From a virus, in IMG/VR virus record IMGVR_UViG_3300045988_096313, positions 32,001 to 96,000 of that record: DNA of 64,000 bases; one strand, 5' to 3'. The notes below the pieces were generated by a model. The model saw only the letters and a program-made list of their open reading frames with translations, was not told the DNA's origin and made no database searches. Positions within the stretch are counted from its first letter, which is position 1; every line of letters starts with the position of its first letter. The position numbers were made by a program, and so were the translations under genes. Shown here piece by piece: positions 273-63,135 of this stretch.

Positions 273-295
273 GGTGAGACACACCCAAAAAACTG
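273..295 (+). promoter_or_regulatory. conserved hairpin-box copy 1 (GGTG-AGACA-CACC + CAAAAAACTG)
   Basis: 4-bp stem and 5-nt loop at 273..285, followed by an A-rich ACTG tail. It ends 9 nt before the ATG at 305. Confidence 0.6.
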
Positions 296-304
296 TCTAA
301 GAGA

Positions 305-490
305 ATGAATAGCAAAGAATTAGTAAGAAATATGATAGCTTTCTTAAACGAGCGTCACGATATGGATTGCGCTACTTTGCGCCAGCGTTTCGCAGTATGC
401 TATGGCATGAGTGAAGACGAGGCTAAGAAAGTTATTTTGGATTTGACTATGCTTCAGATTTTTGCAGAAAATTTTGGTGTTGAAATTTAA
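305..490 (+). CDS. hypothetical protein (61 aa)
   Basis: ORF starting 9 nt after hairpin-box copy 1. Confidence 0.5.
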   Translation: MNSKELVRNMIAFLNERHDMDCATLRQRFAVCYGMSEDEAKKVILDLTMLQIFAENFGVEI

Positions 491-501
491 AACTTAGAAT
501 T

Positions 502-972
502 ATGGATAAGAATACAGCATATCAAGTAATAAGCCAATTTAAGGAAAATAATTGCAAGAGCGGAGCTTTGGCTAACGCTTTGGATGAAGCTTTGAAAGCT
601 TTGAAGCCAGTGGCTACAAATAACGTTTACGTTATCAAGTTGGCTATATTGGGGACTACGTTATCTACGTTATGGATAGAAACATCTAACGATAAGAAAA
701 GGATGCAAGCACATATTGCAGAATGGAGAAGTAAGATAGTAGAGCGATGCAAAGATGATAATAGCTCTTTCGAGTTTGATTTTCAACATGGGAGTCCTTA
801 TAATTTCACGGCAAACAAAAAGAATTGCAATGAGTTGCCTTTTTACTTTGATGGCAAACATTATTGCTTTACGATATTAAAGGGTTATAAAAGTCTTAAA
901 AGCAAATATGAGCAGAGTATCGAGCACGATATGGATGCCGTTCAAGATATGATGTCTTATTTAAATTTATAG
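502..972 (+). CDS. hypothetical protein (156 aa)
   Basis: Intact ORF in a tightly packed same-strand array. Confidence 0.55.
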   Translation: MDKNTAYQVISQFKENNCKSGALANALDEALKALKPVATNNVYVIKLAILGTTLSTLWIETSNDKKRMQAHIAEWRSKIVERCKDDNSSFEFDFQHGSPYNFTANKKNCNELPFYFDGKHYCFTILKGYKSLKSKYEQSIEHDMDAVQDMMSYLNL

Positions 973-975
973 AGC

Positions 976-1242
976 ATGAGGTTATACGAGGTAGGCTGCA
1001 TCGTCAAAGAGGTGCAGCCAAAGAATGGAGAAAAGATTTCTCTAGAGGAGGCTCAGGCTTTGGTTGATGGATATGTTGAGCTGGTTCATCTTGAAGATGA
1101 TAATATATTGTTATGTGATGAAGAAGGACTTCTCAAACATAAACCTATAAATACTTTGGCTACAATACAAGCGAAGGGGCTTGGCTGGAAAGGTAGTTAT
1201 TTGGTTGGAAGCGTGTTATTTTTAAAGGATAAGGAGTTTTAA
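976..1242 (+). CDS. hypothetical protein (88 aa)
   Basis: Intact ORF 3 nt after the previous stop. Confidence 0.5.
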   Translation: MRLYEVGCIVKEVQPKNGEKISLEEAQALVDGYVELVHLEDDNILLCDEEGLLKHKPINTLATIQAKGLGWKGSYLVGSVLFLKDKEF

Positions 1243-1246
1243 ATAT

Positions 1247-1585
1247 ATGAGTAAGGCAAGAAAGAATGATGTGAATAAGGATATACCCGAAGAGCGAATA
1301 ACTCTTAGGGTATTGAAGAATTATTCCAAGATGCAAGAAGAGTTGTGTCGTCTTCGTAAGAAAACACGTGAACAAGGCTACAGACTTAATGAACTCAACA
1401 ATCAGCTACAGAGGCTTCACTCGAAAGAAGTTAGATGTGAGTTAGAGAAGTACAGAAAGTTACTCTTAGAGCGTGATGAGTTATGTGAAAAGAATAAGGC
1501 TTTGGAGCAGGTGGTAAAGCAATACGAAGGATTAAAAAAGTTTTTTACCAATGAGTTGAACGAAAAATTGGAGGGCAAAGAATGA
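1247..1585 (+). CDS. coiled-coil protein (112 aa)
   Basis: Heptad-like charged sequence (ELCRLRKKTREQ..LERDELCEKNKALEQ). Overlaps the next gene by 4 nt (ATGA). Confidence 0.5.
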   Translation: MSKARKNDVNKDIPEERITLRVLKNYSKMQEELCRLRKKTREQGYRLNELNNQLQRLHSKEVRCELEKYRKLLLERDELCEKNKALEQVVKQYEGLKKFFTNELNEKLEGKE

Positions 1586-2307
1586 TTATCGGTTCTATGA
1601 CAGGGCGTGAACTCTTTGAGATATTCAAGAAGGATAAGTCTATGCTAGAAAAGTTTGCTATCGAAAAAGCAAAGAAACTCATCCGTGAGCTTCGTAAAGG
1701 AATGGGGCAATGCACTACTCAGTGTTATGATTTCAAGACGAAAGATGCTACCGAGTACAAAGTATGCGTGTATGTAAATAGAGGGAACATCAGACAATTC
1801 TATTTCGATATGTTTATCTATTGCAAGGAGACGAATGACTATGTATGTGCTACTTCCTTGTTGGACGAAGAGAATAGCGCAGAGCAGTTCAGTTATACGC
1901 CCCATTTCTTACGAAGATATGCCGAGCGAGCATTGGGAATAGAGAATATGCCAATTAATAGGGTATTAGCTCATATAGAAAGAGAAGTGGCTTGTACGGT
2001 GCTTATTTATAAGAATGATACAAGCAAGGTTGTAGCTACGAGTATGGGGCTTTATCTGCAAAAGATTGACTATAAGCGAGGTATTAATATCTGCAAGACT
2101 TTTGTGAGCGTAGATATGCTTAAATCTTCCAAAATTAAAGCATATATGGTAGTTGCCGACTTAATTAAAGAATATTCTGAACGATACACTAAAGTTCAAA
2201 GGAATGATAATGTACAGGTAGATTTCGCTAATGATTGTTTGAGTAGAGGTATTACTGAAAAAGATTTGGTTAATGCCTATGGTGAATATTTCAAGAACAA
2301 AAAATAA
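1582..2307 (+). CDS. hypothetical protein (241 aa)
   Basis: Long intact ORF, translationally coupled to the upstream gene. Confidence 0.55.
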   Translation: MIIGSMTGRELFEIFKKDKSMLEKFAIEKAKKLIRELRKGMGQCTTQCYDFKTKDATEYKVCVYVNRGNIRQFYFDMFIYCKETNDYVCATSLLDEENSAEQFSYTPHFLRRYAERALGIENMPINRVLAHIEREVACTVLIYKNDTSKVVATSMGLYLQKIDYKRGINICKTFVSVDMLKSSKIKAYMVVADLIKEYSERYTKVQRNDNVQVDFANDCLSRGITEKDLVNAYGEYFKNKK

Positions 2308-2322
2308 AAGAAAGGGGTTTGT

Positions 2323-3321
2323 ATGGAGAGAATGACAAGAAATGATGCCGCTGCTTATTTAGGTGTTGACCCTCAGACGATTACAAACTGGGTTAACAAG
2401 GGTTTGCTTGGAGGCTACAATGATAAGAGTAGTAAACGCTTTTGGGTGAATGCAGATGATGTTAAGAAGTATTCCGAGAAGTACAAGATGTTGTCTGTTT
2501 CAGAAGACTTGCTTGATAAAGAACAGAAAGAGTTGTTGGCAAGTGAGCGCAAGGTAAATGCGAAGATACAAATGTTAATGCATGATGCCTTGAACGTTTC
2601 TTCTTTCAGCTATGACAAAATAGGTGGTTCGCTTTGTACGTTATTGGAGTTAACGTCACAAGGTGGAATGCGAGAGAAGAAGATTATGCAAGCATTTTTT
2701 AATGGGGAAAGAATTTGTAATATAGCCGAAGAATTTGAACTTTCAAGGGAGAGGGTGCGCCAGATTGTCATTAAGGCTATCAGAAAGTTTAACTATGCGA
2801 TTGAAGAACTTGCTGACTTGAAGCAGGAGAACAATTCCTTGAAAGAAGAAATTAAGAATGTAAAAATGCAGTTGATTATGCAAGAGGGTGAAAAAGAAGA
2901 AGAACATTCTGAAGATGTTCCCCCTTCTGTGTTCTCCATCCGATTAGTTAATTGTAATTTACCAGTACGTGTCCTTAATGTGACAAAGGCAGCCAATATA
3001 GATACTATTGGAGATTTGGTACAATATTCCAAGTTCGAAATGGTAAAATTCAGAAACTTCGGAAAGAAAAGCCTTATGCAATTGGATGAATTCATTCACG
3101 AAATGGGCTTGGAATGGGGAATGGATAAGGCTAAGATATACGCAAGAGGTATTCAGCGAATGAAGGATGACACTTACATTGAAGAACTTTTTGGGATACA
3201 TCTTGCGGACATAACAAGCGATATTGAGAAAAAGTATAATCTTTCTCCGGCTGAGGCTATGAAGAGAGCTTATAGTGAAATGAAGAGATATGTAGGATTT
3301 AAAGAGAAGAGCAATGAATGA
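2323..3321 (+). CDS. putative transcription factor: N-terminal MerR/excisionase-like HTH, sigma-70 region-4-like segment and RNAP alpha-CTD-like C-terminus
   Basis: AAAYLGVDPQTITNWVNKGLL looks like an HTH. EFELSRERVRQIVIKAIRKF resembles sigma region 4.2. LPVRVLNVTKAANIDTIGDLVQYSKFEMVKFRNFGKKSLMQLDEFIHEMGL resembles the alpha-CTD helix-hairpin-helix pattern. Confidence 0.6.
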   Translation: MERMTRNDAAAYLGVDPQTITNWVNKGLLGGYNDKSSKRFWVNADDVKKYSEKYKMLSVSEDLLDKEQKELLASERKVNAKIQMLMHDALNVSSFSYDKIGGSLCTLLELTSQGGMREKKIMQAFFNGERICNIAEEFELSRERVRQIVIKAIRKFNYAIEELADLKQENNSLKEEIKNVKMQLIMQEGEKEEEHSEDVPPSVFSIRLVNCNLPVRVLNVTKAANIDTIGDLVQYSKFEMVKFRNFGKKSLMQLDEFIHEMGLEWGMDKAKIYARGIQRMKDDTYIEELFGIHLADITSDIEKKYNLSPAEAMKRAYSEMKRYVGFKEKSNE

Positions 3322-22987: not shown

Positions 22988-23497
22988 TCATATTTTCAAG
23001 AAGTCTTCTACATCAATGTACTCAATTCCGAAATTCTCTGCGCATTGTTTGTCGGAGTCTGAGAAGTCACCTTCTTTTCCACTGGCATCACCTATCATAA
23101 TCAGCTCACTCTTTTTCCAAGAAGAATACGACTCAAGCATTCCTGTATTTGGCTTTCTCATGCAAATCTCTGCATTTGATGGGCAATACATGGAGTTGAC
23201 AAAGATGTTGCGTCCGGTATGATGGCGAAGATATTTTTGCATAAAGCTTTCTATAGCCTTAATCTTTCCGATAAATTCCTGTTCGTCAACGAATTGAGGT
23301 ATGCCACCTTGGTTTGAAACTATTTCTACATAGTATAGGGTAGGGAACGCTTCTACTATCTTATCCAAAACCTCTTTACGTATTTTGAAATCTGTTACAT
23401 CTGTAGGAAAGGTGTTTCCTGAAATAGTCTTGATTATAGTATCGTCTAAATCAATGAATAGTACTTTTTTCTTGATTAAATATCCTTTTTCTATCAT
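22988..23497 (-). CDS. HAD-family polynucleotide 3'-phosphatase-like protein (PNK phosphatase domain only)
   Basis: FIDLDDTII (DxDxT), VSNQGGI and MIGDASGKEGDFSDSDKQCAENFG match the PNKP/T4 Pnk phosphatase motifs. There is no kinase P-loop. Start moved to ATG 23497, downstream of the promoter and box. Confidence 0.65.
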   Translation of the reverse strand: MIEKGYLIKKKVLFIDLDDTIIKTISGNTFPTDVTDFKIRKEVLDKIVEAFPTLYYVEIVSNQGGIPQFVDEQEFIGKIKAIESFMQKYLRHHTGRNIFVNSMYCPSNAEICMRKPNTGMLESYSSWKKSELIMIGDASGKEGDFSDSDKQCAENFGIEYIDVEDFLKI

Positions 23498-23553
23498 ATT
23501 TTGCTTATCCTTTATATTAATGTCATTACCTAAAAAATGAAGTTTATAAAACA

Positions 23554-23576
23554 CAGTTGTTTTGGTGTGTCTCACC
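23554..23576 (-). promoter_or_regulatory. conserved hairpin-box copy 2
   Basis: The minus strand reads GGTGAGACACACC-AAAACAACTG, 12 nt downstream of the -7 box. Confidence 0.6.
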
Positions 23577-23588: not shown

Positions 23589-23596
23589 CAAAGATA
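23589..23596 (-). promoter_or_regulatory. -7 promoter box (TATCTTTG on minus strand)
   Basis: The plus strand reads CAAAGATA. Confidence 0.55.
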
Positions 23597-27283: not shown

Positions 27284-27901
27284 TTAAGCACACACAAATT
27301 TGAAACCAAACTTTTCAGTATAGTATTCCTCTTTAGGGTGTCTTTTTGTCTCGGAGTCATAGCAGAGAATAAACGGCTCACCCTTAGAGTAGAAATAGTT
27401 ATAAGACTTTCGCAAATACATCTTTGCATTCAAAGCCTTTGGGGAGAGCTTTCTTATTCTTAACTTTGTCTCTTGTGGTTTGCCCGACATAACTCTAAGT
27501 TCATCCATTTTGTATTGCATGTGAAGTTTTCTTCCTTTACTTGCATATCTTTCTTTAGTCCAATAGTTTCTTAGAGACTTGTTTCGCTCTTTACGAATCC
27601 TATTTATCGTTTCTACATCGTGTTTCAAGCCAAGCTTACTGATTTGTCCTAATATTGTAGACTGAGGAATATTCGTTACTTCTGAGATTTCTCTCGCTGT
27701 CATCGTTTTGTACATGTCGGAGATTTTGCTGATAGTCTCATTGTTCAATTTATTGTCTATTTTCGTACCACCTAAAATAGTGATATACTTGTATAATGTA
27801 TGTAAGGTTACACCAGCAGCCTTGGCTACTTCCTTTCGTGGGTAGTCATTGATGTGGACTTTGATATAGTCCATCTGTTCTTGTGTTAATCTTCTTGGCA
27901 T
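27284..27901 (-). CDS. HTH DNA-binding regulator, paralog A (205 aa)
   Basis: Two HTH-like segments (PRKEVAKAAGVTLHTLYKYI; TAREISEVTNIPQSTILGQISKLG). Collinear similarity to the adjacent gene. Confidence 0.6.
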   Translation of the reverse strand: MPRRLTQEQMDYIKVHINDYPRKEVAKAAGVTLHTLYKYITILGGTKIDNKLNNETISKISDMYKTMTAREISEVTNIPQSTILGQISKLGLKHDVETINRIRKERNKSLRNYWTKERYASKGRKLHMQYKMDELRVMSGKPQETKLRIRKLSPKALNAKMYLRKSYNYFYSKGEPFILCYDSETKRHPKEEYYTEKFGFKFVCA

Positions 27902-28527: not shown

Positions 28528-28534
28528 TTTTATT

Positions 28535-28557
28535 CAGTTTTTGTGGTGTGTCTCACC
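28535..28557 (-). promoter_or_regulatory. conserved hairpin-box copy 3
   Basis: The minus strand reads GGTGAGACACACC-ACAAAAACTG and ends 7 nt before ATG 28527. Confidence 0.6.
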
Positions 28558-28567: not shown

Positions 28568-28575
28568 CAAAGGTA
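28568..28575 (-). promoter_or_regulatory. -7 promoter box (TACCTTTG on minus strand)
   Basis: The plus strand reads CAAAGGTA. Confidence 0.55.
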
Positions 28576-29994: not shown

Positions 29995-30024
29995 TAGGGT
30001 GCATCTTATGATACACCCTATTTT
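29995..30024. terminator. bidirectional terminator between convergent genes
   Basis: TAGGGTG/CACCCTA stem followed by TTTT. Confidence 0.65.
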
Positions 30025-31473: not shown

Positions 31474-31539
31474 ATACATTCGCTTATCCGTGGTGCGTAG
31501 GGCTTAATTGGTTATTAACCTTGTTTCTTAATTACATTG

Positions 31540-36576: not shown

Positions 36577-36584
36577 TATCTTTG
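36577..36584 (+). promoter_or_regulatory. -7 promoter box TATCTTTG upstream of tnpB
   Basis: Matches TAnnTTTG. The upstream TTGCATAT resembles the promoter modules at 39.06 kb and 44.24 kb. Confidence 0.55.
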
Positions 36585-36596
36585 CAAGTGGATTTC

Positions 36597-36621
36597 GGTG
36601 AGACACACCTTTCAAAAACTG
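36597..36621 (+). promoter_or_regulatory. conserved hairpin-box copy 4
   Basis: GGTGAGACACACC-TTTCAAAAACTG. Lies 12 nt after the -7 box and ends 16 nt before the tnpB ATG. Confidence 0.6.
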
Positions 36622-36637
36622 TTTAAAATTTAGGGAT

Positions 36638-38500: not shown

Positions 38501-38756
38501 TCATTTGCAAAGGCTCTTTGATGAGGGGCTCTGCATGAAGACTACCGAACTTGAATTCGGTACACTTGAAGTAACGGTTGAGAATCGAAGCCAAGACAAG
38601 AAAATCACATTCTTAGCAAATGGTATAGAGGATGCAAAGCAGAAAGCCATGGAGTGGCAAGTTGGTCAGATGCTGCTGAATTCCGAAGATTTCGAGGAGG
38701 TTGTTATGTTCTTGGCTCAAAGAAAGAAACTTAAAAAGGAAATGTCAAATGGATAA
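38478..38756 (+). CDS. hypothetical protein (92 aa)
   Basis: Intact ORF overlapping the upstream gene. Confidence 0.5.
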   Translation: MEKSNLYNHLQRLFDEGLCMKTTELEFGTLEVTVENRSQDKKITFLANGIEDAKQKAMEWQVGQMLLNSEDFEEVVMFLAQRKKLKKEMSNG

Positions 38757-38910
38757 GAATTTTAGAAGTTGTTTTTGTTGCGTCCATTTCTTGGAAATAC
38801 AAAATACAAGTACAGGAAACGTTTTGAAATGCAAGAAGGGTAGCACTACGAAAGTGCAAGGGAAGCGACTGACAGAAATCGCTGCAAGATGCAGAAATTA
38901 TAAAGCGTGA
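38749..38910 (+). CDS. small Cys-rich protein (53 aa)
   Basis: MDKNFRSCFCCVHF...C..C. Start chosen at the ATG overlapping the previous stop. Confidence 0.4.
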   Translation: MDKNFRSCFCCVHFLEIQNTSTGNVLKCKKGSTTKVQGKRLTEIAARCRNYKA

Positions 38911-38928
38911 GCCACACGTTAAAAACTG
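38906..38928 (+). promoter_or_regulatory. conserved hairpin-box copy 5 (variant CGTG-AGCCA-CACG)
   Basis: CGTGAGCCACACG-TTAAAAACTG overlapping the stop of the previous gene. It is followed after 12 nt by only an 8-codon ORF. Confidence 0.5.
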
Positions 38929-39084
38929 ACTTTGATTAATATGGTTACAAAAACTTTCAATTGTTAGAACGCATAAAATGCAAAAATCTACTAAATGAAT
39001 GGTTGTATTAATGTTTAAAGATTAAAATACTTTAAACGTGTACATAAACACATTAAATAATTTGCATATTTCGATATTAGTTTG

Positions 39085-39092
39085 TATCTTTG
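39085..39092 (+). promoter_or_regulatory. -7 promoter box TATCTTTG with TTTG 24 nt upstream
   Basis: Matches TAnnTTTG. A candidate -33 TTTG lies at 39061. Confidence 0.6.
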
Positions 39093-39129
39093 CACTGTAA
39101 TTAAGAGACAAAGATTACTAATTTGAAAA

Positions 39130-39152
39130 GGTGAGACACACCATAAAAACTG
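39130..39152 (+). promoter_or_regulatory. conserved hairpin-box copy 6
   Basis: GGTGAGACACACC-ATAAAAACTG, ending 6 nt before ATG 39159. Confidence 0.6.
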
Positions 39153-39158
39153 GTGATA

Positions 39159-39467
39159 ATGACAAAGAAAGAAATTTTAAAACAATGGCTTGAAGAACCA
39201 AAAGTGAAATATTGTGGCAATTCAAATTTCACATTAGGTTATGGTGATGGTTGGGATTGGGTTAAAGATACCCTACGACCAACTATCACGAAGAATGCGA
39301 TGTTCCTTAGACTCTTGGAGCATGTTTTCCGTGAGATAGAAGAATTTCTTAAGCCCAAGTCTGGGAAACCGAGCGAAGAGGATTGTACCTTGTATTCTGT
39401 TGGATACAAAGATGGAGTCAAGGATGCTATAATAGCAATAAAGAATAGATTTGAAATATATAAATAG
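39159..39467 (+). CDS. hypothetical protein (102 aa)
   Basis: First gene after the promoter-box module. ATG 39159 preferred over GTG 39153. Confidence 0.5.
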   Translation: MTKKEILKQWLEEPKVKYCGNSNFTLGYGDGWDWVKDTLRPTITKNAMFLRLLEHVFREIEEFLKPKSGKPSEEDCTLYSVGYKDGVKDAIIAIKNRFEIYK

Positions 39468-44128: not shown

Positions 44129-44167
44129 CCATCACTATATATAATAATGTAGTGGTGGTTTTTTTTT
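44129..44167 (+). terminator. intrinsic terminator
   Basis: CCATCACTA/TAGTGGTGG stem (one wobble) followed by TTTTTTTTT. Confidence 0.75.
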
Positions 44168-44261: not shown

Positions 44262-44269
44262 TATCTTTG
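44262..44269 (+). promoter_or_regulatory. -7 promoter box TATCTTTG
   Basis: Matches TAnnTTTG. Confidence 0.6.
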
Positions 44270-44305
44270 CATCGTAGTTAAGAAACAAAGGTTACTAATT
44301 TAAAA

Positions 44306-44328
44306 GGTGAGACACACCTTAAAAACTG
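44306..44328 (+). promoter_or_regulatory. conserved hairpin-box copy 7
   Basis: GGTGAGACACACC-TTAAAAACTG, ending 10 nt before GTG 44339. Confidence 0.6.
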
Positions 44329-44338
44329 TAAGAAGAAA

Positions 44339-52271: not shown

Positions 52272-52532
52272 ATGAAGATAAGACAAGCTAAGAAGATAAT
52301 GAAGCAAGTCTATAAAACCCGATATTGGGCTTATAGACAAGGCTATTATTGTGGCAAAACGGATGCAGGAAAACTAGCCGGAGACCATCGTTTGTTAAAG
52401 GCTATGCGTCTTACACAGAAGTGGGAAATCCGCAAGATGCGAAATAAAATATTGAAGAAGAATCCGTTCAAACCGAGAGACCTTCGACGTAGTGTTTTAA
52501 AATTAATGAGATATGGATGTAGCAATGCTTAA
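52272..52532 (+). CDS. highly basic small protein (86 aa)
   Basis: Lys/Arg-rich throughout (RQAKKIMKQVYKTRYW...RKMRNKILKK...RDLRRSVLKLMR). Confidence 0.45.
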   Translation: MKIRQAKKIMKQVYKTRYWAYRQGYYCGKTDAGKLAGDHRLLKAMRLTQKWEIRKMRNKILKKNPFKPRDLRRSVLKLMRYGCSNA

Positions 52533-55665: not shown

Positions 55666-55678
55666 TAAAGTTTAAGAG

Positions 55679-55701
55679 CGTGAGACACACGTTAAAAACT
55701 G
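55679..55701 (+). promoter_or_regulatory. conserved hairpin-box copy 8 (CGTG-AGACA-CACG)
   Basis: CGTGAGACACACG-TTAAAAACTG with no adjacent -7 box. Ends 14 nt before ATG 55716. Confidence 0.6.
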
Positions 55702-55715
55702 AAAAGAAGAAACAA

Positions 55716-56471
55716 ATGGAAAGTAAGATTGTTTTGACAAAAGAAAGCTCTTCATTGGATTTGGAGAGTTACTTTCGTGGAGTTTTGGAATTAGATAAGC
55801 AGAGAAAGGAATATCCTGTAAATCTTGATGAAGTTTGGCAACTTTGCTATGCGGAGAAAGGAAAGGCAGTGCGTGCATTGAAGACCAACTTCATTGAGAA
55901 TGTGGATTTTATCAGTATTGCCAAAAATGGCAAAACTGCAACAGGTGGTTACAAAGAGGTTAGCTATCACCTCACCTCCGCTTGTTTGGAATATTTTGTT
56001 GCTCGCAAGGTTCGTCCGGTGTTTGAAGTGTACCGCAAGGTCTTTCATTGTGTAGCACAAGGCATGATACCTTCTTATCAGATTGAAGACCCAATTGAGA
56101 GAGCGAAGCGTTGGATAAAGGAGCAGGAAGAGAAGAAAGCTATTGAGGAAAAGAACAAGGAAATGCAGCCAAAGGCAGAATACTTTGATAACTTAGTTGA
56201 CAAAGGCTTGCTTACGAACTTCCGAGATACAGCAAAGGAGATTGGTATGAAGCAGAATCTGTTCATCAAAATCTTGATTAAGAAGAAATACGTCTATCGT
56301 GATAAACAGAATCACATTAAGCCATATTCACAATACAATGATGACTTGTTTAAGGTGAAAGACTGGGGAAATGACAAAGCTGTTGGTACAAGAACACTTA
56401 TCACACCAAAGGGAAAGGAGACATTCAGACTGCTTTTCGGAAATGGTAATATGCCTTCGTTGAATTTCTAG
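55716..56471 (+). CDS. phage antirepressor, KilAC domain protein
   Basis: C-terminal KAEYFDNLVDKGLLTNFRDTAKEIGMKQNLFIKILIKKKYVYRD matches the KilAC/ANT pattern. Start moved to the first ATG after the box. Confidence 0.7.
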   Translation: MESKIVLTKESSSLDLESYFRGVLELDKQRKEYPVNLDEVWQLCYAEKGKAVRALKTNFIENVDFISIAKNGKTATGGYKEVSYHLTSACLEYFVARKVRPVFEVYRKVFHCVAQGMIPSYQIEDPIERAKRWIKEQEEKKAIEEKNKEMQPKAEYFDNLVDKGLLTNFRDTAKEIGMKQNLFIKILIKKKYVYRDKQNHIKPYSQYNDDLFKVKDWGNDKAVGTRTLITPKGKETFRLLFGNGNMPSLNF

Positions 56472-56568: not shown

Positions 56569-56588
56569 AGTGAGTCACACAAAAACTG
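56569..56588 (+). promoter_or_regulatory. conserved hairpin-box copy 9 (degenerate, AGTG-AGTCA-CACA)
   Basis: AGTGAGTCACACA-AAAACTG, ending 7 nt before ATG 56596. The closing pair is not complementary. Confidence 0.45.
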
Positions 56589-56595
56589 AAAAATT

Positions 56596-57306
56596 ATGGA
56601 AATTGATAAAAGTAAAGTGTATTATTCCGTGGAGGGATTTCCTTTTAAGATTGTAAAAATGACATCAAAGTTGACTTGTATTGTTTTTGCTTTCAAACAA
56701 GGATTTATGAAAGGAGTAAGAATAGACAAGATTAACAATGTTTCTTTTCTTATAAATGGAAAAGGTTACTTTGATGTAACTACCATTGAGGAGTATTGTG
56801 ATAAGTATAATTCAAAAGCGTACCAAATTTGGACTGGTATTTTATGCCGCATAGGGGTATCTGGGTATAAAGATGTGAGTGTTTGTAAGGAGTGGTTATT
56901 GTTCTCTCGTTTTGAAAAATTTCATACCAGGTGGTATCAAGAAGGTTATGCAATAGATAAAGATTTGCTTTCGGGTGATACTAAGATATATTCCCCTGAT
57001 ACTTGTACTTATATGCCGGGTTATTTGAACAATTCAATAACTCCCGAATTTAGTAAACGAGAATATGATTTTAAGAAATCTAATGGTATCTATTATTATG
57101 ATATAGCTGATATAAAACAACGTATTTATAGTTCCACAAAGGATGGAATTATTCACAAATACGCCATTTGTAGATGCATAAGGGTTAAAACGTATTATTC
57201 TTCGTGTTGGAAGTTTTTGCGTCCGGAAGCGAGAGAAAAGATAGAAAATATGTATCAGGTAGAACATTTAGAAAAGTATATAAAGGAACACTTAAAGGAG
57301 GATTAA
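56596..57306 (+). CDS. hypothetical protein (236 aa)
   Basis: Intact ORF following box copy 9. Confidence 0.5.
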   Translation: MEIDKSKVYYSVEGFPFKIVKMTSKLTCIVFAFKQGFMKGVRIDKINNVSFLINGKGYFDVTTIEEYCDKYNSKAYQIWTGILCRIGVSGYKDVSVCKEWLLFSRFEKFHTRWYQEGYAIDKDLLSGDTKIYSPDTCTYMPGYLNNSITPEFSKREYDFKKSNGIYYYDIADIKQRIYSSTKDGIIHKYAICRCIRVKTYYSSCWKFLRPEAREKIENMYQVEHLEKYIKEHLKED

Positions 57307-57890: not shown

Positions 57891-57947
57891 CAATGTCTTT
57901 AAGAGATAAAGGCTTTAAAGTTTAACTATTAATTGCTGTTATGCAGC

Positions 57948-57961
57948 CGAGTCGGCACTCG
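57948..57961 (+). promoter_or_regulatory. variant leader hairpin CGAGT-CGGC-ACTCG followed by TAAAACGGT
   Basis: 5-bp stem and 4-nt loop, ending 17 nt before ATG 57979. The same 24-mer recurs inverted at 63821..63844. Confidence 0.5.
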
Positions 57962-57978
57962 TAAAACGGTTTGAGGAT

Positions 57979-58317
57979 ATGACTACTTCAATTAAGAACA
58001 AGATGAGAAAGGTAATGCAGTTGGCACATAGAGCCTATCAGTTGAAATCAGCTTATATGAGTTGGGCAGAATGCTTGAAGCAAGCTTGGCAGGTAATCAA
58101 GCTGAAGGCTCGCATGAAGAAGCAGGTCGTTGAGTTCTACTTTCAGAAGATGAATGGTGAGGTAAGACAAGCCTTTGGTACTCTCCTTCAGAGCCACATT
58201 GACTATACTCCAAATGGTACAGGGCATGCAGCATCAAGAGATTGCATCCGCTATTGGGATGAAGCAAAGGGCGCATGGAGACAATTCAAGGCTTACAACT
58301 TCTTGCGAGTTGCATAA
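57979..58317 (+). CDS. hypothetical protein (112 aa), paralog of 63475..63810
   Basis: Roughly 75-80% amino-acid identity (by-eye estimate) to the inverted copy. Confidence 0.6.
   Translation: MTTSIKNKMRKVMQLAHRAYQLKSAYMSWAECLKQAWQVIKLKARMKKQVVEFYFQKMNGEVRQAFGTLLQSHIDYTPNGTGHAASRDCIRYWDEAKGAWRQFKAYNFLRVA
58027..58161 (+). repeat. 135-bp perfect inverted repeat, arm 1
   Basis: Identical to the reverse complement of 63628..63762 (checked base by base). Confidence 0.95.
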
Positions 58318-58356
58318 AGATATATTCACGTTCTAAGGTGTTTGGCGAGGCTTAAT

Positions 58357-58386
58357 AGGGGGTGTGCCTTTAAACACCCCTTTAGT
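58357..58386 (+). terminator. intrinsic terminator candidate
   Basis: GGGGTGT/ACACCCC stem followed by TTTAGTTT. Confidence 0.55.
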
Positions 58387-58411
58387 TTAGGACTTTTAAA
58401 GTATTTGAGAT

Positions 58412-58660
58412 ATGGAGACAATTGCTAAGTGTTTGAAAGAAGTGTTCTACAAAGGGCATCATATTACCAAGGTGGAGGACGTATTCGGTCAGATTGCCGT
58501 TCGCATTGATAATGTTGTTGAACCGGACTATGCTAGCATAGCAGAGGCGAAACGTGTAATCAATGGTAAAGCCCCAAAGTGGTTTAATGATGGTTATATG
58601 TGGGACGAAGCCAGCAAGAAAGTTGTAAAAGACCCTAACGCTTTCCGATGGGAGGAGTAA
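58412..58660 (+). CDS. hypothetical protein (82 aa)
   Basis: Intact ORF. Confidence 0.45.
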   Translation: METIAKCLKEVFYKGHHITKVEDVFGQIAVRIDNVVEPDYASIAEAKRVINGKAPKWFNDGYMWDEASKKVVKDPNAFRWEE

Positions 58661-58959
58661 GAAAACATAAGGTAAAGAACTTAAAACAATTGGTTATGGA
58701 AAAGTTTATTGATGGCAGTTATGTATTCGAGAAAACAAATGAGTTTCCGGATGGCTACGAAATTTGGGCGATTGGTCGAAGAAATTTCGAGCACAAAGGC
58801 TACGTACCATTGTGTGAGGTTGATGAGAACTACAACGTCAAAAGAGATACCTTGAAGGCTTTGAAAGTCAAGGATGAAGCATTTGCTTTGGCTTTGCTCT
58901 ATGAAGCCGTTAAACGAGGTGTCAACAAGAAGAAGTATAACAAAATGTTAAGTGCATAA
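58648..58959 (+). CDS. hypothetical protein (103 aa)
   Basis: Overlaps the upstream gene by 13 nt. An alternative start lies at 58696. Confidence 0.45.
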   Translation: MGGVRKHKVKNLKQLVMEKFIDGSYVFEKTNEFPDGYEIWAIGRRNFEHKGYVPLCEVDENYNVKRDTLKALKVKDEAFALALLYEAVKRGVNKKKYNKMLSA

Positions 58960-58963
58960 GAAC

Positions 58964-59260
58964 ATGGATGAGAATTTCTTGAATGTGCTCTATATCGAGC
59001 ACACGGACAAAATAGGCGTTCTAAAGGACGATAAGAACGAAAGGGTATCGGTTGTTCGTGGGACAGACAAAACGCTTGTAGAACGCAAAAGAGAGGGCAA
59101 AACGTACCTTCTTGTACCATTAACAAAGAACCATACTTTCAAGTGCAATGGCGATAGCTTGGAGGTTGATGGCAAGATTATCCCTAGCAAGGTATTTTTC
59201 CGTAAGGATGGTGCTCAGTGGATTGAGATTGACAAAGAAACGTTATTTAAGGTTGCGTAA
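58964..59260 (+). CDS. hypothetical protein, LVPLTK-family paralog (98 aa)
   Basis: MDENFLNVLYIEHTDKIGVL...LVPLTKNHTFKCNGDSLEVDGKIIPSKVFFRKDGAQWIEI aligns with the 62782..63081 product. Confidence 0.55.
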   Translation: MDENFLNVLYIEHTDKIGVLKDDKNERVSVVRGTDKTLVERKREGKTYLLVPLTKNHTFKCNGDSLEVDGKIIPSKVFFRKDGAQWIEIDKETLFKVA

Positions 59261-60079: not shown

Positions 60080-60364
60080 ATGAATATACTAGACTATTAT
60101 GAGGTTGTCACCTCAAAGATTTTCAAGTTGGAAAGCATGAACGAGGGGCTTGTATTGATAGCACCGGAGCAGGAGGTAGATGGAGTCCGTTCCTTGATGG
60201 TGGGATTATATGTTCCTGAGCATGAACGATACAAGATATATACTTTCCGTTCATCTATGAACGAGGGCGAACTTGGCGACAAGTACAAGGCGATGGTCGG
60301 CACGATGAATGTACTTAAACCGGATTGGGACAGAATTAGAAAGAAAAGACGGAAGAGGATTTAA
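60080..60364 (+). CDS. hypothetical protein (94 aa)
   Basis: Intact ORF, convergent with the RHH gene (4-nt overlap). Confidence 0.45.
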   Translation: MNILDYYEVVTSKIFKLESMNEGLVLIAPEQEVDGVRSLMVGLYVPEHERYKIYTFRSSMNEGELGDKYKAMVGTMNVLKPDWDRIRKKRRKRI

Positions 60365-60549
60365 CCTCTTACCGCCTTAAGGATGCATTCGTTGATGAAG
60401 TCACTCTTGTTTCCGTCTAAGGAATTGAGGATGTCGAGCGTTTCTTCTGTGGCAGAAAAGAACATACGTTTAGCGCATTTTTTCTTGCGTCCACACCCTT
60501 CTCTTGCACCTCCCCATGACTTGGTTGTCTTTTCTTCGTTTGTGCCCAT
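60361..60549 (-). CDS. ribbon-helix-helix-like protein with basic WGGAREGCGRKKK arm
   Basis: The strand-helix-helix pattern RMFFSATEETLDILNSLDGNKSDFINECILKAV. Paralogous arm to the 30023..30205 product. Confidence 0.5.
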   Translation of the reverse strand: MGTNEEKTTKSWGGAREGCGRKKKCAKRMFFSATEETLDILNSLDGNKSDFINECILKAVRG

Positions 60550-60733: not shown

Positions 60734-60793
60734 ATTTCACCTACTCTTTCAGGTTTTCGGCATCCCCTTTGCAATCTCTCATTGATTACACAG

Positions 60794-60801
60794 CAAAGAT
60801 A
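60794..60801 (-). promoter_or_regulatory. -7 promoter box (TATCTTTG on minus strand) for the RHH gene
   Basis: The plus strand reads CAAAGATA. Implies a leader of about 240 nt. Confidence 0.5.
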
Positions 60802-61470: not shown

Positions 61471-61471
61471 A

Positions 61472-61494
61472 CAGTTGTCCTAGTGTGTCTCACT
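61472..61494 (-). promoter_or_regulatory. conserved hairpin-box copy 10 (AGTG-AGACA-CACT)
   Basis: The minus strand reads AGTGAGACACACT-AGGACAACTG. It overlaps the 3' end of the Rha gene, just before the terminator. Confidence 0.5.
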
Positions 61495-62331
61495 GCTTGC
61501 AAACATATCTACTTGCTTGGATGGTTTGTAGCCGATGATTTCCAATACCTCCTCAAACTTGTTGTCATACCACTTCGGAATGGTTTGCCCAGGCACATCC
61601 TTGTAGATGTCATTCAAAGCATACACCAAACCTTTCTCGGTGACGGAATAGTACTTGTGAACCTTTCCGTGCGTACCCTTTCGGGTCTTCTCTTCCAATA
61701 AGCCAGCAGTCAATGCCATCTTATTGAACTTGATAGCAGACAACACAACTCCACGTTCTTTCAATAATTCGCTGACTGCGTGCGAAGCACCATTCGGAGC
61801 GTGGACGTAATCGGGAACCGGAACACCATAAGGCTCTGCTATCTGGCTTACCAACTGCAAGCGAGCAGCATCACTATATCGCAACGAGTCCATTACCCAA
61901 TTGGCAACCGTCAACTTGTCTTGCAAGAAACTTTGCTGAGGCTTCATTTGCTCGGCTTGCATCTTGGCTTGTGCTTGCTCACGATGCTTGATTTCCAACT
62001 CCTCCCAACGCAAAATCAACTTCGCTCTTGCCTCGTCATTGAACTTGGTCGCAATGTAAAGACTCTCACGTTTGGTAAGGGAATAACAAGGACGCTCACG
62101 TCCGTTTTCATCTAAGTAAGAGCAGAGGGAAAAATTTCCCCGAGCCACCTTAAACCATGATTCTTCCATTTTACGAATAGCTTTCATCACATCTGCGTGA
62201 CGTTTATTTGCTATTGTAGCAATTTCTAACGAGGTGATTCTTTCTTCTCCATCACCTGTCGTACCAGATTTCACACTGCCCGATGGGAACACTGGCGGAT
62301 TCACCATCATCCGGTTTACATTTTCTGTCAT
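61480..62331 (-). CDS. Rha-family phage regulatory protein / antirepressor-like
   Basis: ITSLEIATIANKRHADVMKAIRKMEESW matches the Phage_pRha N-terminal domain. Confidence 0.7.
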   Translation of the reverse strand: MTENVNRMMVNPPVFPSGSVKSGTTGDGEERITSLEIATIANKRHADVMKAIRKMEESWFKVARGNFSLCSYLDENGRERPCYSLTKRESLYIATKFNDEARAKLILRWEELEIKHREQAQAKMQAEQMKPQQSFLQDKLTVANWVMDSLRYSDAARLQLVSQIAEPYGVPVPDYVHAPNGASHAVSELLKERGVVLSAIKFNKMALTAGLLEEKTRKGTHGKVHKYYSVTEKGLVYALNDIYKDVPGQTIPKWYDNKFEEVLEIIGYKPSKQVDMFASSETH

Positions 62332-62424: not shown

Positions 62425-62565
62425 AGCCACTTGCCCACTAAAGTAGAGAGATGAGCTTGTGGCAATTCTCCACGCTTGGAGAAAGTGAAATATCTAACAA
62501 ATTTTAATAGTTTCAATATCCTTATTAGCCGTGCTCTCTACTTCACAACCTTGTTGTTTCGGCTG

Positions 62566-62573
62566 CAAAGTTA
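62566..62573 (-). promoter_or_regulatory. -7 promoter box (TAACTTTG, context TAACTTTGCAGCCG)
   Basis: The plus strand reads CAAAGTTA. The extended context matches the promoter at 27101. Confidence 0.5.
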
Positions 62574-62616
62574 ATGCTTTTCTCTTTAACTTGCAAACGC
62601 TTTAGTGTTTTATTTA

Positions 62617-62630
62617 AAACGTTAACGTTT
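62617..62630. promoter_or_regulatory. palindrome AAACGTTAACGTTT upstream of the Rha promoter
   Basis: Perfect 14-bp palindrome centred about 50 nt upstream (minus sense) of the -7 box. Confidence 0.45.
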
Positions 62631-62738
62631 GTTTTACTTTGGAGGACTTCTGTCCTCGCCAGCACGACCAGCTATCGTGGCACGTTGCTGCACATTACTT
62701 CTTCTTTCCATTATTCACGGAATTTAATTGTTAAACAT

Positions 62739-62746
62739 CAAAGATA
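62739..62746 (-). promoter_or_regulatory. -7 promoter box (TATCTTTG on minus strand)
   Basis: The plus strand reads CAAAGATA. Downstream lie only a 25-codon ORF and hairpins. Confidence 0.4.
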
Positions 62747-62751
62747 ATGTG

Positions 62752-62772
62752 CAGTTTATAGTGTGCCTCACC
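62752..62772 (-). promoter_or_regulatory. conserved hairpin-box copy 11 (GGTG-AGGCA-CACT, G-U closing pair)
   Basis: The minus strand reads GGTGAGGCACACT-ATAAACTG, immediately 3' of the 62782..63081 gene. Confidence 0.5.
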
Positions 62773-62781
62773 TTATATATA

Positions 62782-63081
62782 TTATGCTACCATTGATAGC
62801 ATTTCTTTTGATTGCATCTGAATCCATTGACAAGCATCCTTGCGGAAAAAGATGTCAGAATCGAGCTGCTTGCCATCCACAATGATGTAATTACCCTTAT
62901 ACTCAAATTTGTGGTTTCGGGTCAATGGGACTAGCAGATAGACCGCCATGTCCTTTTTATCCAACACCAGTGTAAGGTCAGTACCCAATATATGTGAAAT
63001 AGTGTTGTCTTTGTCGTCACACAATACACCAATCTTCTCATCGTAGCTCACGTAGAGAGCATCCATTAAATTCTTATCCAT
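62782..63081 (-). CDS. hypothetical protein, LVPLTK-family paralog (99 aa)
   Basis: Start moved to ATG 63081 (MDKNLMDALYVSY) by alignment to 58964..59260. The ORF-track N-terminus covers box copy 12. Confidence 0.55.
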   Translation of the reverse strand: MDKNLMDALYVSYDEKIGVLCDDKDNTISHILGTDLTLVLDKKDMAVYLLVPLTRNHKFEYKGNYIIVDGKQLDSDIFFRKDACQWIQMQSKEMLSMVA

Positions 63082-63114
63082 ATCTCTTAAATATTTAATG
63101 TTCAAAGTCCGGTG

Positions 63115-63135
63115 CAGTTTAGCGTGTGCCTCACG
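63115..63135 (-). promoter_or_regulatory. conserved hairpin-box copy 12 (CGTG-AGGCA-CACG)
   Basis: The minus strand reads CGTGAGGCACACG-CTAAACTG in the intergenic gap, 33 nt before ATG 63081. Confidence 0.55.

Follow-up and report, generated by a model that had tools for sequence, protein, structure and literature searches.

A conserved, predicted mini-pseudoknot upstream of start codons

The window analysed here is a stretch of 64,000 nt from the virus record IMGVR_UViG_3300045988_096313 (positions 32,001 to 96,000), and it carries 12 copies of a short element that lie on the coding strand of the flanking ORFs, between genes or at gene ends. An initial annotation described these copies as strand-matched boxes made of a hairpin with a GTG/CAC stem followed by a separate A-rich tail. 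As set out below, we interpret each as a compact H-type RNA pseudoknot, in which a first helix (P1) is followed by a two-nucleotide loop (L1), a second helix (P2) between the hairpin loop and the tail, and an A-rich third loop (L3). The copies are listed here with hairpin loop and tail separated by a slash, distances to start codons counted from CUG, and scores from the covariance model described below. Labels beginning with L followed by three digits designate other sequences compared with the window.

273..296 (+): copy 1, G-GUG AGACA CAC-C, L3 CAAAAAAC, UGU; intercistronic, 7 nt after the stop of 11-265, with the AUG of 305-490 9 nt downstream; 36.5 bits.
23553..23576 (-): copy 2, AGACA / CUGU; starts 13 nt after the -7 box at 23589-23596, with the start of the PNK-phosphatase-like gene (22988-23497) 56 nt downstream; 34.6 bits.
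28534..28557 (-): copy 3, AGACA / CUGA, the outer P2 pair being an A-A mismatch where orthologues L004/L027 have AGUCA / CUGA; starts 11 nt after the -7 box at 28568-28575, with the AUG of the HTH gene 27886-28527 7 nt downstream; 35.4 bits.
36597..36622 (+): copy 4, AGACA / CUGU, with the longest L3; starts 13 nt after the -7 box at 36577-36584, with the AUG of the TnpB/IS605 OrfB-like gene 36638-37774 16 nt downstream; 28.4 bits.
38904..38929 (+): copy 5, AGCCA / CUGA (a C-A mismatch), 6-bp P1; overlaps the stop of 38749-38910, is followed only by an 8-codon micro-ORF and looks like a decaying copy, since orthologues in L086, L221, L222 and L268 have lost the tail; 30.1 bits.
39130..39153 (+): copy 6, AGACA / CUGG; 38 nt after the -7 box at 39085-39092 and preceded by a 5' leader hairpin, with the AUG of 39159-39467, the first gene of a long rightward operon, 6 nt downstream; 37.5 bits.
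44304..44329 (+): copy 7, AGACA / CUGU, 6-bp P1; 37 nt after the -7 box at 44262-44269 and just after the terminator at 44129-44158, with a GTG start at 44339 (ATG in relatives) 10 nt downstream; 42.3 bits.
55677..55702 (+): copy 8, AGACA / CUGA, 6-bp P1; intercistronic, with the AUG of the Ant/KilAC antirepressor gene 55716-56471 14 nt downstream; 35.2 bits.
56569..56589 (+): copy 9, AGUCA / CUGA, a compensated U-A outer P2 pair, 3-bp P1 and the shortest L3; AUG of the HNH-endonuclease-like gene 56596-57306 7 nt downstream; 24.5 bits.
61471..61494 (-): copy 10, AGACA / CUGU; the stop codon of the Rha/Ant-like gene 61480-62331 lies inside L3, a terminator-like hairpin follows directly and there is no downstream gene; 31.0 bits.
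62751..62772 (-): copy 11, AGGCA / CUGC, a compensated G-C outer P2 pair with a G-U closing pair; 9 nt after the stop of 62782-63081 with no start codon nearby, conserved in relatives L005, L013, L021 and L075; 30.3 bits.
63114..63135 (-): copy 12, AGGCA / CUGC, a compensated G-C outer P2 pair; 7 nt after the stop of 63143-63442, with the AUG of 62782-63081 33 nt downstream; 25.9 bits.
39085..39092 (+): an example of the Bacteroidota-type -7 promoter box (TATCTTTG, with TTTG/TTGC at about -33).

The observation of twelve strand-matched copies holds. The pattern GTGAGNCACAC has exactly 12 matches, 7 on the plus strand and 5 on the minus strand, while dinucleotide shuffles, a control proposed beforehand, give a mean of 0.03 and a maximum of 1. 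No further copy appears when one mismatch is allowed, all 12 are followed by AACTG within 2-8 nt, and a covariance model built from 75 units recovers the same 12 at 24.5-42.3 bits with the next hit at only 10.9 bits. The counts given in the initial annotation were correct, both for the loops (AGACA 8, AGGCA 2, AGCCA 1, AGTCA 1) and for the closing pair (G-C 6, C-G 3, A-T 1, G-T 1, A/A 1), as was the association with promoters and start codons. Five copies, at 23.5, 28.5, 36.6, 39.1 and 44.3 kb, start 11-38 nt after a -7 box (TAnnTTTG), and seven copies end 6-16 nt before a start codon, with gaps of 9, 7, 16, 6, 10, 14 and 7 nt. The copies at 23.5 and 63.1 kb are farther from theirs, and those at 38.9, 61.5 and 62.8 kb have no gene behind them.

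What required correction was the structure, since the tail is not an independent box but the A-rich L3 plus the 3' strand of a second helix that pairs with the hairpin loop. The unit is therefore an H-type pseudoknot of 22-28 nt, in which P1 is 3-6 bp and takes more than 20 different sequences, L1 is invariably AG, the next three loop bases (N-C-A) pair with U-G-N' of the tail to form a 3-bp P2, there is no L2, and L3 is an A-rich stretch of 5-10 nt that ends in AAC and would cross the minor groove of P1. Evidence that P1 is a real helix comes first from orthologous units in prophage arrays, which carry GUG, GUGC, GCGC, CGG, AGG, GGGG, GGG, GAG, UGG and CAG stems that are 100% paired at the three inner pairs in 50 distinct rows. 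A scan that fixed only the top pair returned about 22 distinct sequence families, of which 11 had further stems with 4-6 perfect pairs (CGUGG, UGUGG, CGAG, AGAG, AAGAG, AGAGG, AGUAG, ACAAGG, GGGG, CGGG, AAAG), where about 1 of 22 is expected by chance. The closing pair covaries as the initial annotation had proposed, being Watson-Crick in 96, G-U in 12 and A-C in 0 of 122 distinct units, and the tolerance of G-U in the absence of A-C points to RNA of the sense strand.

P2 is supported by covariation between the loop N and the base after CUG in 122 distinct units from a scan that left both bases free. The pair is A-U in 76 units (Fisher p = 1e-7, 38 independent contexts), G-C in 10 (p = 5e-8, 7 contexts), G-U in 7 (5 contexts, without a Fisher test) and U-A in 5 of 5 (p = 3e-5, 3 contexts), and slid registers lose the signal. 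The two inner P2 pairs, L1 and the AAC never vary, however, so P2 rests on covariation at one pair plus geometry, and this invariance looks more like the binding core for a specific partner or ligand than like a generic structure.

The element is very widespread in gut phages, other mobile elements and a few bacterial genes. It is present in hundreds of Bacteroidota phage contigs, before establishment genes of conjugative elements (ArdC, SSB, ParB-like, DUF932 and also DUF6876), between higB and higA of a toxin-antitoxin pair, before chromosomal cysS (flanked by sbcCD, xth and purE) in five Bacteroidales species, and in Lachnospiraceae prophages, where three tandem units precede the scaffold gene. 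The GUG-type unit is nonetheless rare in bacterial chromosomes, with 95 stretches in 596 Gb, and it is therefore not a general host translation signal. Of 235 distinct units, 128 have an open ATG 6-11 nt after CUG, with a mode of 9-10, and about 14 more have a GTG at 10 nt; in Bacteroidota most units end 7-10 nt before the AUG. Roughly 20% of credible copies have no start codon within 12 nt, including the 23.5, 61.5 and 62.8 kb families. As far as our searches can show the element is undescribed, since Rfam 15 gave no hit and no relevant paper among the part of the literature hits that was examined contains the sequence.

Among the closest known systems is the preQ1-I riboswitch aptamer (Rfam RF00522), likewise a very small H-type pseudoknot (about 34 nt) with a covarying P1, a short conserved P2 between hairpin loop and tail, an A-rich L3 (AAAAAACU...) lying in the P1 minor groove, and a position directly in front of the ribosome-binding region (PMC11625349). 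The present element differs in having no L2 and no specificity cytosine before the 3' strand of P1, that position being a covarying base pair, in an L1 that is AG rather than U-rich, in giving no covariance-model hit, and in its use by dozens of unrelated gene families with no link to queuosine genes. Leader pseudoknots that bind S1 or the 30S subunit (the tisB standby pseudoknot, the rpsO operator and SELEX S1 ligands) are also H-type knots in a 5' leader next to an unstructured A-rich stretch upstream of the start codon, with the same proposed role in recruiting or positioning the 30S subunit (PMC7708055). Those are single-gene, species-specific structures with no shared sequence at various distances from the RBS, whereas this is a sequence family with an invariant core, reused before many genes across two phyla at a fixed 7-10 nt from the AUG, and for which S1 or 30S binding remains a conjecture. 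Luteovirus-type frameshifting pseudoknots such as that of BWYV have the same compact geometry as that inferred here, with a first stem of 4-5 bp, a first loop of 2 nt, a second stem of 3 bp, an almost absent junction and an A-rich last loop of 6-7 nt that forms minor-groove triples. They lie inside ORFs, 6-8 nt downstream of a slippery site, while the units described here lie in untranslated leaders, five of them near transcript 5' ends where no ribosome arrives from upstream. Lambda/P22 nut sites share a small RNA hairpin with a covarying stem in phage leaders and a conserved single-stranded partner sequence nearby, but boxB displays a GNRA-like pentaloop to the N protein, and in our case there is no boxA, the loop pairs with the tail, and there are many copies per genome, tied to start codons and occurring also in cellular genes. 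Guanidine-II (mini-ykkC) and other tandem small-hairpin leader motifs likewise consist of tiny units with free stems and invariant loops, sometimes in tandem, just upstream of the ribosome-binding site, but here there is no ACGR tetraloop, each unit is an intramolecular pseudoknot rather than one half of a loop-loop dimer, and there is neither a coherent gene association nor an Rfam hit.

Our preferred explanation, which we hold only tentatively, is that the knot acts in cis on the gene immediately downstream using host rather than phage-specific machinery. Bacteroidota do not use Shine-Dalgarno pairing, and the knot ends where an SD:anti-SD helix would sit, so it may dock on, or be positioned by, the 30S platform or protein S1, and thereby define and boost initiation at that AUG. 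There is precedent in that S1 and the 30S subunit bind H-type pseudoknots, and a 5' pseudoknot is required for standby translation of tisB (PMC7708055). While the repeat, its strand and position bias, the two helices by covariation, the invariant core, the spacing to start codons and the distribution are all established by the sequence analysis, ribosome contact and a positive effect on translation are inferences without direct evidence. In Lachnospiraceae prophages the three units sit upstream of a strong AAAGGAG Shine-Dalgarno sequence, where the knot cannot be an SD surrogate, and in this window the element precedes early and accessory genes, not the most highly expressed structural genes.

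Two alternatives remain open, although we consider each of them unlikely. In the first, a compact triplex-type pseudoknot near the 5' end of a transcript or of a processed cistron would block 5'-end-dependent decay (by an RNase J-type 5'-3' exonuclease, or RNase E/G/Y entry), so that the downstream cistron would outlive the rest of the transcript. The three tandem knots of the Lachnospiraceae prophages lie between an intrinsic terminator and the SD of the scaffold/major-capsid genes, which is where a 5' stabiliser of a processed late mRNA would be expected, and in several promoter-proximal copies the knot begins only 11-13 nt after the -7 box, so within a few nt of the 5' end. Copies with distant or no start codons, such as the one fused to a terminator at 61.5 kb, also fit a stability role better than a translation role, and the architecture resembles the mechanically robust luteovirus-type knots. 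On the other hand, a stabiliser does not need the narrow 8-10 nt spacing to the AUG seen in most Bacteroidota copies, a generic roadblock would not need an invariant AG/CA/AAC/UG core, and many copies are intercistronic with no known processing site. The 5'-3' exonuclease version further presumes such an enzyme in Bacteroidota, for which the text of PMC3071783 lists only RNase E/G homologues.

In the second, the invariant core would be an aptamer or operator for a conserved partner, either a small molecule, as in preQ1-I, or a conserved host RNA-binding protein, whose binding would stabilise or open the knot and turn translation of the downstream gene off or on. The conservation pattern is riboswitch-like, with helices that covary freely while L1, the inner P2 pairs and the AAC of L3 are invariant across two phyla, and the fold (hairpin, A-rich tail AAAAACU, short P2 to the loop, position just before the ribosome-binding region) parallels preQ1-I. 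Tandem units like those of the prophage arrays occur in cooperative riboswitches, and P1 alone is no more stable than shuffles, so folding may need a partner. However, the client genes have no metabolic theme, including as they do antirepressors, HTH proteins, TnpB, HNH, SSB, ArdC, ParB-like, a scaffold protein, HigA and CysRS; there is no L2 and no unpaired pyrimidine at the helix junction to read a ligand; and there is no Rfam hit to PreQ1 or any other riboswitch, even at E = 10 on a 51-nt slice.

The interpretation offered in the initial annotation is only partly supported. It was right that the element is a transcribed-strand RNA structure tied to start codons rather than plain sequence conservation, but its two functional proposals, a lambda nut/boxB-like recruitment site for antitermination or a translational operator bound by a protein of this phage (for example the 52272-52532 or 2323-3321 product), are poorly supported and seem very unlikely to us. 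In favor of these, five copies lie in leaders shortly after promoters, the copy at 44.3 kb follows a good terminator, the prophage arrays follow a terminator, the phage encodes an unusual HTH + sigma region 4 + alpha-CTD protein, and mobile elements do use leader RNAs for processive antitermination, as in conAn2 of pLS20 (PMC8191782), although conAn2 is a region of about 280 nt with no resemblance to the knot. Against the antitermination reading, the loop is base-paired to the tail instead of being presented to a protein as a GNRA-like pentaloop, no boxA-like second box is conserved in the flanks, and units precede individual consecutive genes at a fixed distance from the AUG (55.7/56.6 kb and 63.1/62.8 kb in the window, three consecutive genes in L126) rather than occurring once per operon upstream of terminators. 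Terminator-like sites are also not enriched in the window, at 16 against 12.7 ± 3.5 and 17 against 11.1 ± 3.5. A phage-encoded operator-binding protein is unlikely because the identical core serves chromosomal cysS, higA, conjugative-element genes and unrelated Lachnospiraceae prophages, which share no candidate protein with this phage, the prophages having only one weak protein match to it (27% identity over 125 aa).

Least likely is a DNA-level element (an operator or promoter for a DNA-binding protein, an N4-type hairpin promoter, or a short homology serving as a recombination joint between gene cassettes), for although the core is an inverted repeat, flanks cassette-like selfish genes (TnpB, HNH) and in near-identical 22-25 nt units at many gene boundaries could promote mosaic exchange (L034 shares the unit and L3 with the 61.5 kb copy but has a different upstream gene), a dimeric DNA-binding site does not predict free covariation of P1 and of a loop base with a base 12-17 nt downstream, the G-U tolerance points to RNA, orientation is strict and spacing to start codons fixed, no phage RNA polymerase was found in the proteins scanned from the window or the small prophages, and recombination, which may be a side effect, would not explain the invariant core.

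If the preferred explanation is correct, the element would be a portable cis-acting 5'-leader module read by host machinery, behaving as a "promoter-knot-AUG" expression cassette whose clients are early, accessory and selfish genes of phages and establishment genes of conjugative elements.

The repeat described in the initial annotation is real: GTGAGNCACAC occurs 12 times in the 64-kb window, whereas dinucleotide-preserving shuffles give 0.03. No additional copies appear at one mismatch, each copy is followed within 2-8 nt by AACTG, and a covariance model built from 75 distinct units recovers the same 12 at 24.5-42.3 bits, with the next hit at 10.9 bits. The annotation's counts of loop variants and closing pairs are correct when read from the copies, and a rough gene map shows every copy on the coding strand of its neighbours, between genes or at a gene end. 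The window is from an uncultured human-gut phage that encodes a large terminase, a portal protein, a 2601-aa fibre-like protein, methyltransferases, a TnpB-like gene and Ant/Rha antirepressors. It is 90-95% identical to contigs binned with a Segatella copri genome, although host assignment by a metagenomic bin is tentative. Its promoters are of the Bacteroidota type, and five copies start 11-38 nt after a TAnnTTTG -7 box.

The unit is much more widespread than this phage. A pattern scan of IMG/VR returned at least 120 stretches, many of them relatives with several copies each, and this and the other collection-wide abundances are lower bounds. A stricter pattern found 95 stretches in one-genome-per-species bacterial assemblies, where about 26 would be expected from a uniform-composition estimate, and almost all of these lie 8-11 nt before an ATG. 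The hosts are Bacteroidota (Alistipes, Segatella/Prevotella, Bacteroides, Parabacteroides, Chitinophagales), and one Ignavibacteria assembly and Clostridia (Blautia, Anaerocolumna and other Lachnospiraceae) also carry it. In the Clostridia the unit occurs as three tandem copies lying between an intrinsic terminator and the Shine-Dalgarno (SD) sequence of the prophage scaffold gene. Upstream of the three tandem knots these Lachnospiraceae prophages (array loci L008, L009, L019, L025, L031, L054, L063, L070, L076 and L079, and genome loci L122-L210) share a small GCCCGAAGGC hairpin and an AAAACUAC box directly after the terminator, and the whole leader of about 120 nt is conserved and has no Rfam match. 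Among the cultured phages and plasmids searched, none carries the unit; only uncultured relatives match.

The first helix, P1, is real. At orthologous positions of the prophage arrays the stem is GUG/CAC, GUGC/GCAC, GCGC/GCGC, CGG/CCG, AGG/CCU, GGGG/CCCC, GGG/CCC, GAG/CUC, UGG/CCA or CAG/CUG, while the loop AGACA and the tail AACUG stay fixed. Since these alignments were selected for, or fitted to, a stem, we also ran a scan that fixed only the pair next to the loop and excluded the common GUG stem. This returned about 22 distinct sequence families, eleven of which had 4-6 perfect further pairs, with eleven different stems, in AT-rich leaders with an ATG 8-10 nt downstream, where about one such family is expected by chance. 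The outer closing pair singled out in the initial annotation is paired in 108 of 122 distinct units and shows 12 G-U and no A-C, which places the structure on the sense strand and therefore in RNA. This count and the scan with only the pair next to the loop fixed are the checks free of the selection for P1. P1 alone is weak (-1.2 to -6.5 kcal/mol) and folds no better than shuffles, so a bare hairpin would not explain the conservation, and a simple hairpin recognised through its loop is rejected on this ground and because the loop pairs with the tail.

What had been described as a tail is the other half of a pseudoknot, since the variable middle base of the loop covaries with the base that follows CUG. 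In the window, the two AGGCA copies are followed by CUGC and the AGUCA copy by CUGA, and five of the eight AGACA copies are followed by CUGU. The first viral scan left both positions free, and its 122 distinct units, which fall into 66 sequence contexts, gave the following combinations.

Loop N paired with the base after CUG in 122 distinct units (count; Fisher p; independent contexts)
A-U: 76; 1e-7; 38
G-C: 10; 5e-8; 7
G-U: 7; not tested; 5
U-A: 5 of 5; 3e-5; 3

On the 75-unit alignment the pair is standard in 65 rows, and the signal vanishes when the partner column is slid. Loop N-C-A therefore pairs with tail U-G-N', and the resulting layout consists of a P1 of 3-6 bp, an L1 of two bases, a P2 of 3 bp, no L2 and an A-rich L3 of 5-10 nt. 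This is the geometry of a classical compact H-type pseudoknot, resembling the preQ1-I aptamer (PMC11625349). It also resembles the luteovirus frameshift knots. P2 rests on one covarying pair plus geometry, because the two inner P2 pairs are invariant and cannot be tested by covariation: scans that allowed any base at the loop C or A, with free partners in the tail, found only three hits in all of IMG/VR, all GC-rich chance matches. P2 also has the form of an anticodon/codon pairing, NCA with UGN', giving UGU or UGC (Cys) or UGA, with the variable pair in the "wobble" position. The only housekeeping client found is cysteinyl-tRNA synthetase (the cysS leaders L161, L180, L183, L185 and L212); this is probably coincidence, although a tRNA-Cys or CysRS connection is not excluded.

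The core of the unit is invariant. When L1 was left free, 89 of 89 credible units had AG, and the four exceptions were matches inside coding sequence. Of 231 distinct cores collected, 225 carry the AACUG tail, and the six that do not are orthologues of the gene-less copy at 38.9 kb, which seems to be decaying. The core AG-CA...AAC-UG is conserved far beyond what base pairing alone requires, a pattern typical of a site that forms specific tertiary contacts or binds a specific partner.

Among 235 distinct GUG-type units, 128 have an open ATG 6-11 nt after CUG (mode 9-10), about 14 have a GTG start at 10 nt, 29 are internal to tandem arrays and 3 are followed directly by an SD, while the remainder are conserved families without a nearby start, or chance matches inside genes. 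In many leaders the knot begins 10-20 nt after the -7 box, so that promoter, knot and AUG form a compact cassette of about 45 nt of leader. Clients in the window are the first genes of early operons, an HTH protein, a PNK-phosphatase-like protein, a TnpB-like gene, an HNH-endonuclease-like gene and an Ant antirepressor. Clients elsewhere are the ArdC, SSB, ParB-like, DUF932 and DUF6876 genes of conjugative elements, with three consecutive genes in one locus; the antitoxin of a higBA pair in Bacteroides intestinalis; and cysS in five Bacteroidales species, where it is flanked by sbcCD, xth and purE and so is chromosomal. Other features of the window are as follows.

36577-37774 (+) and 56569-57306 (+): two selfish-type genes, each with its own pseudoknot. 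The first is a TnpB/IS605 OrfB-like gene (OrfB_IS605 + Cas12f1-like TNB domains) that also has its own -7 box, and the second is an HNH-endonuclease-like gene; the knot looks like part of a portable expression cassette.
38929-38960 (+): an 8-9 codon micro-ORF (MVTKTFNC) after the gene-less copy at 38.9 kb, conserved in the relative L044. In other relatives the knot's tail is lost at this locus.
61471-61494 (-): a copy in which the stop codon of the Rha/Ant-like gene lies inside L3 and a terminator-like hairpin follows at once, an arrangement conserved in relatives (also seen at loci L016, L021 and L034). In L034 the same knot and L3 follow a different upstream gene and the terminator hairpin is inverted, which suggests recombination at the unit.
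39101-39113 (+), 44278-44290 (+), 57899-57911 (+), 63882-63894 (-) and 31519-31531 (-): a second leader element, a 5'-proximal hairpin right after the -7 box, with a covarying stem (GUAAU/AUUAC, GUAGU/GGUUAC, GUGAU/GUCAC, GUCUU/AAGGC) and a conserved loop UUAAGARANAAAG. At 39.1 and 44.3 kb it precedes the pseudoknot in the same leader, and it is also common in related contigs; the loop pattern has 9 matches at one mismatch or fewer, against 2.8 expected.
57949-57969 (+) and 63821-63841 (-): two identical occurrences of GAGTCGGCACTCGTAAAACGG, each about 9 nt before the ATG of paralogous genes (57979-58317 and 63475-63810), in the place where related leaders (L028, L046, L120) carry the GUG-AGACA-CAC unit. 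We could not fit it to the same pseudoknot, and it may be a different specificity class.
57979-59260 (+) versus 63810-62782 (-): inverted paralogous gene blocks in which, for example, 57979-58317 pairs with 63475-63810 and 58964-59260 pairs with 62782-63081. Only the minus-strand block carries the pseudoknots.
2323-3321 (+): a 332-aa protein combining HTH_17, sigma-70 region 4 and an RNA polymerase alpha C-terminal domain, an unusual architecture for a phage transcription factor.
30023-30205 (-) and 60361-60549 (-): two small basic paralogues that share a GGAREGxGRK motif resembling an AT-hook, neither with a Pfam hit.
60738-60770 (-): an Rfam DUF805b RNA (RF02914, 40.3 bits, above the 35.6-bit gathering score), about 25 nt downstream of a Bacteroidota-type -7 box at 60794-60801 (-), with no obvious gene directly behind it.

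Small basic ORFs such as 52272-52532, considered as possible N-like proteins, have no family hit.

How the element works is less certain than what it is. The repeat, its two helices, its invariant core, its position and its distribution come directly from the sequence comparisons, whereas everything concerning ribosomes, including binding of S1 or the 30S subunit and any dependence of translation on the knot, is inference. In our view the element most likely works on the sense RNA, in cis, on the next gene, and since it occurs in contexts that share no candidate element-encoded protein, it would be read by something common to Bacteroidota and Clostridia cells. In Bacteroidota, which do not use SD pairing (PMC6847099), the 3' end of the knot lies in most units 7-10 nt before the AUG, separated from it by an A-rich spacer, and this is the position of an SD:anti-SD helix. 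H-type pseudoknots are known high-affinity ligands of S1 and the 30S subunit, and one is required for standby translation of tisB (PMC7708055); the knot shares with such standby or enhancer pseudoknots an H-type fold in the leader, flanked by unstructured RNA upstream of the start codon. Our preferred, tentative reading is therefore a ribosome-docking and positioning module that would give early and establishment genes efficient, correctly placed initiation. Three facts fit this badly: the tandem arrays upstream of a strong SD in Clostridia, the 20% of copies without a nearby start codon, and the invariant core. A further reading, which is possible but less likely than not, is that the knot is a self-contained, structure-based ribosome-binding signal, an intramolecular surrogate of the SD:anti-SD helix or bacterial "mini-IRES". 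It would occupy the platform cleft of ribosomes whose anti-SD is sequestered, as in Bacteroidota, and would fix the AUG 7-10 nt downstream in the P site. If so, phages and conjugative elements would carry it as a host-independent cassette, so that their first genes are translated as soon as the DNA enters a cell.

The same three facts keep two rivals alive. One is a 5' stabiliser or nuclease barrier, which fits the arrays and the promoter-proximal copies best. The other is a ligand- or protein-responsive switch, which fits the riboswitch-like conservation best. The preQ1-I riboswitch (RF00522) is the closest in fold, being an H-type pseudoknot with an A-rich L3 and a short P2 to the hairpin loop, but the unit fails that family's defining features. 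The aptamer has an L2 with the specificity cytosine (AC or UC) immediately before the 3' strand of P1 (PMC11625349), whereas here there are no L2 nucleotides, and the base before and at the start of the 3' strand is part of P2/P1 and covaries (column 7-13: G-C 70, C-G 5). There is no PreQ1 hit at gathering score or at E <= 10 on the window, on four related loci or on a 51-nt slice, and instead of queuosine synthesis or transport genes the downstream genes are regulators, selfish nucleases, SSB, ArdC, ParB-like, scaffold, HigA and CysRS.

The functional interpretation in the initial annotation is only partly supported. Its view that the element is an RNA structure linked to gene starts, and undescribed, stands. 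Its proposal of a lambda nut/boxB-like antitermination signal fails on several counts. A boxB hairpin presents an unpaired GNRA-like pentaloop (GAAAA/GACAA) to an arginine-rich N peptide, whereas the last three bases of the AGNCA loop pair with the tail. No boxA (NusB/S10 site) is conserved next to the hairpin, since in the alignment of 75 units the 5' flank and the first L3 positions are not conserved and nothing beyond the A-rich L3 and CUG is shared. Units precede individual consecutive genes at 6-16 nt from their start codons, rather than occurring once per operon, promoter-proximal and upstream of the terminators to be overridden, and terminator-like sites are not enriched. The known leader-RNA antitermination system of conjugative plasmids, conAn2, is an unrelated region of about 280 nt. 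The alternative proposal, an operator for a protein of this phage, is hard to reconcile with the cellular and cross-phylum clients, and BLAST of ORFs from 13 tandem-array loci against all window ORFs gave only one weak, TerS-like hit.

Other identities were considered and set aside. SD-like pairing of AGGUGA with the 16S 3' end is rejected because the site lies about 30 nt from the AUG and P1 takes many other sequences. An ECF-type promoter (AAC-N17-CGTA) fits only the middle unit of the prophage arrays and not the window copies. Against an N4-like hairpin promoter or a phage RNA polymerase promoter, no RNA polymerase was found in the proteins scanned, and five copies lie downstream of host-type promoters. 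For an IS200/IS605 end, REP/RAYT, attC or CRISPR-like repeat, the unit is too short, has the wrong anatomy and is tied to start codons. Type III toxin-antitoxin RNA arrays (ToxI-like) consist of near-identical tandem pseudoknot repeats followed by a terminator and an endoribonuclease toxin gene, whereas the prophage arrays have three units with different stems, followed by an SD and the scaffold gene.

We found no earlier description of the element. Rfam 15 gives no match to it at gathering scores, or at E <= 10 on the window, on array-bearing loci or on a 51-nt slice, the DUF805b RNA being the only hit in the window and unrelated to the boxes. None of the inspected papers containing the core sequence concerns phage or Bacteroidota, and topic searches of Bacteroidota and phage papers turned up no description of such a knot. 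Leader H-type pseudoknots are already known; this one, undescribed as far as these searches show, is closest in fold to preQ1-I without sharing that family's defining features.

How Bacteroidota, a dominant gut phylum, choose start codons without SD pairing is unresolved, as is how their phages and mobile elements secure expression. A 25-nt leader element with an invariant core, lying in most units 7-10 nt before the AUG, makes this question testable by giving it a concrete, mutable object. The element is reused before dozens of unrelated early and establishment genes, including antirepressors, TnpB, HNH, SSB, ArdC, ParB-like proteins, antitoxins and one aminoacyl-tRNA synthetase. It is a sequence marker for gene starts and early genes in uncultured gut phages and a candidate new entry for RNA family databases, and it may be a compact, portable expression part for engineering Bacteroides or Segatella. 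If it is instead a switch or a nuclease barrier, its reuse across two phyla would still be unusual.
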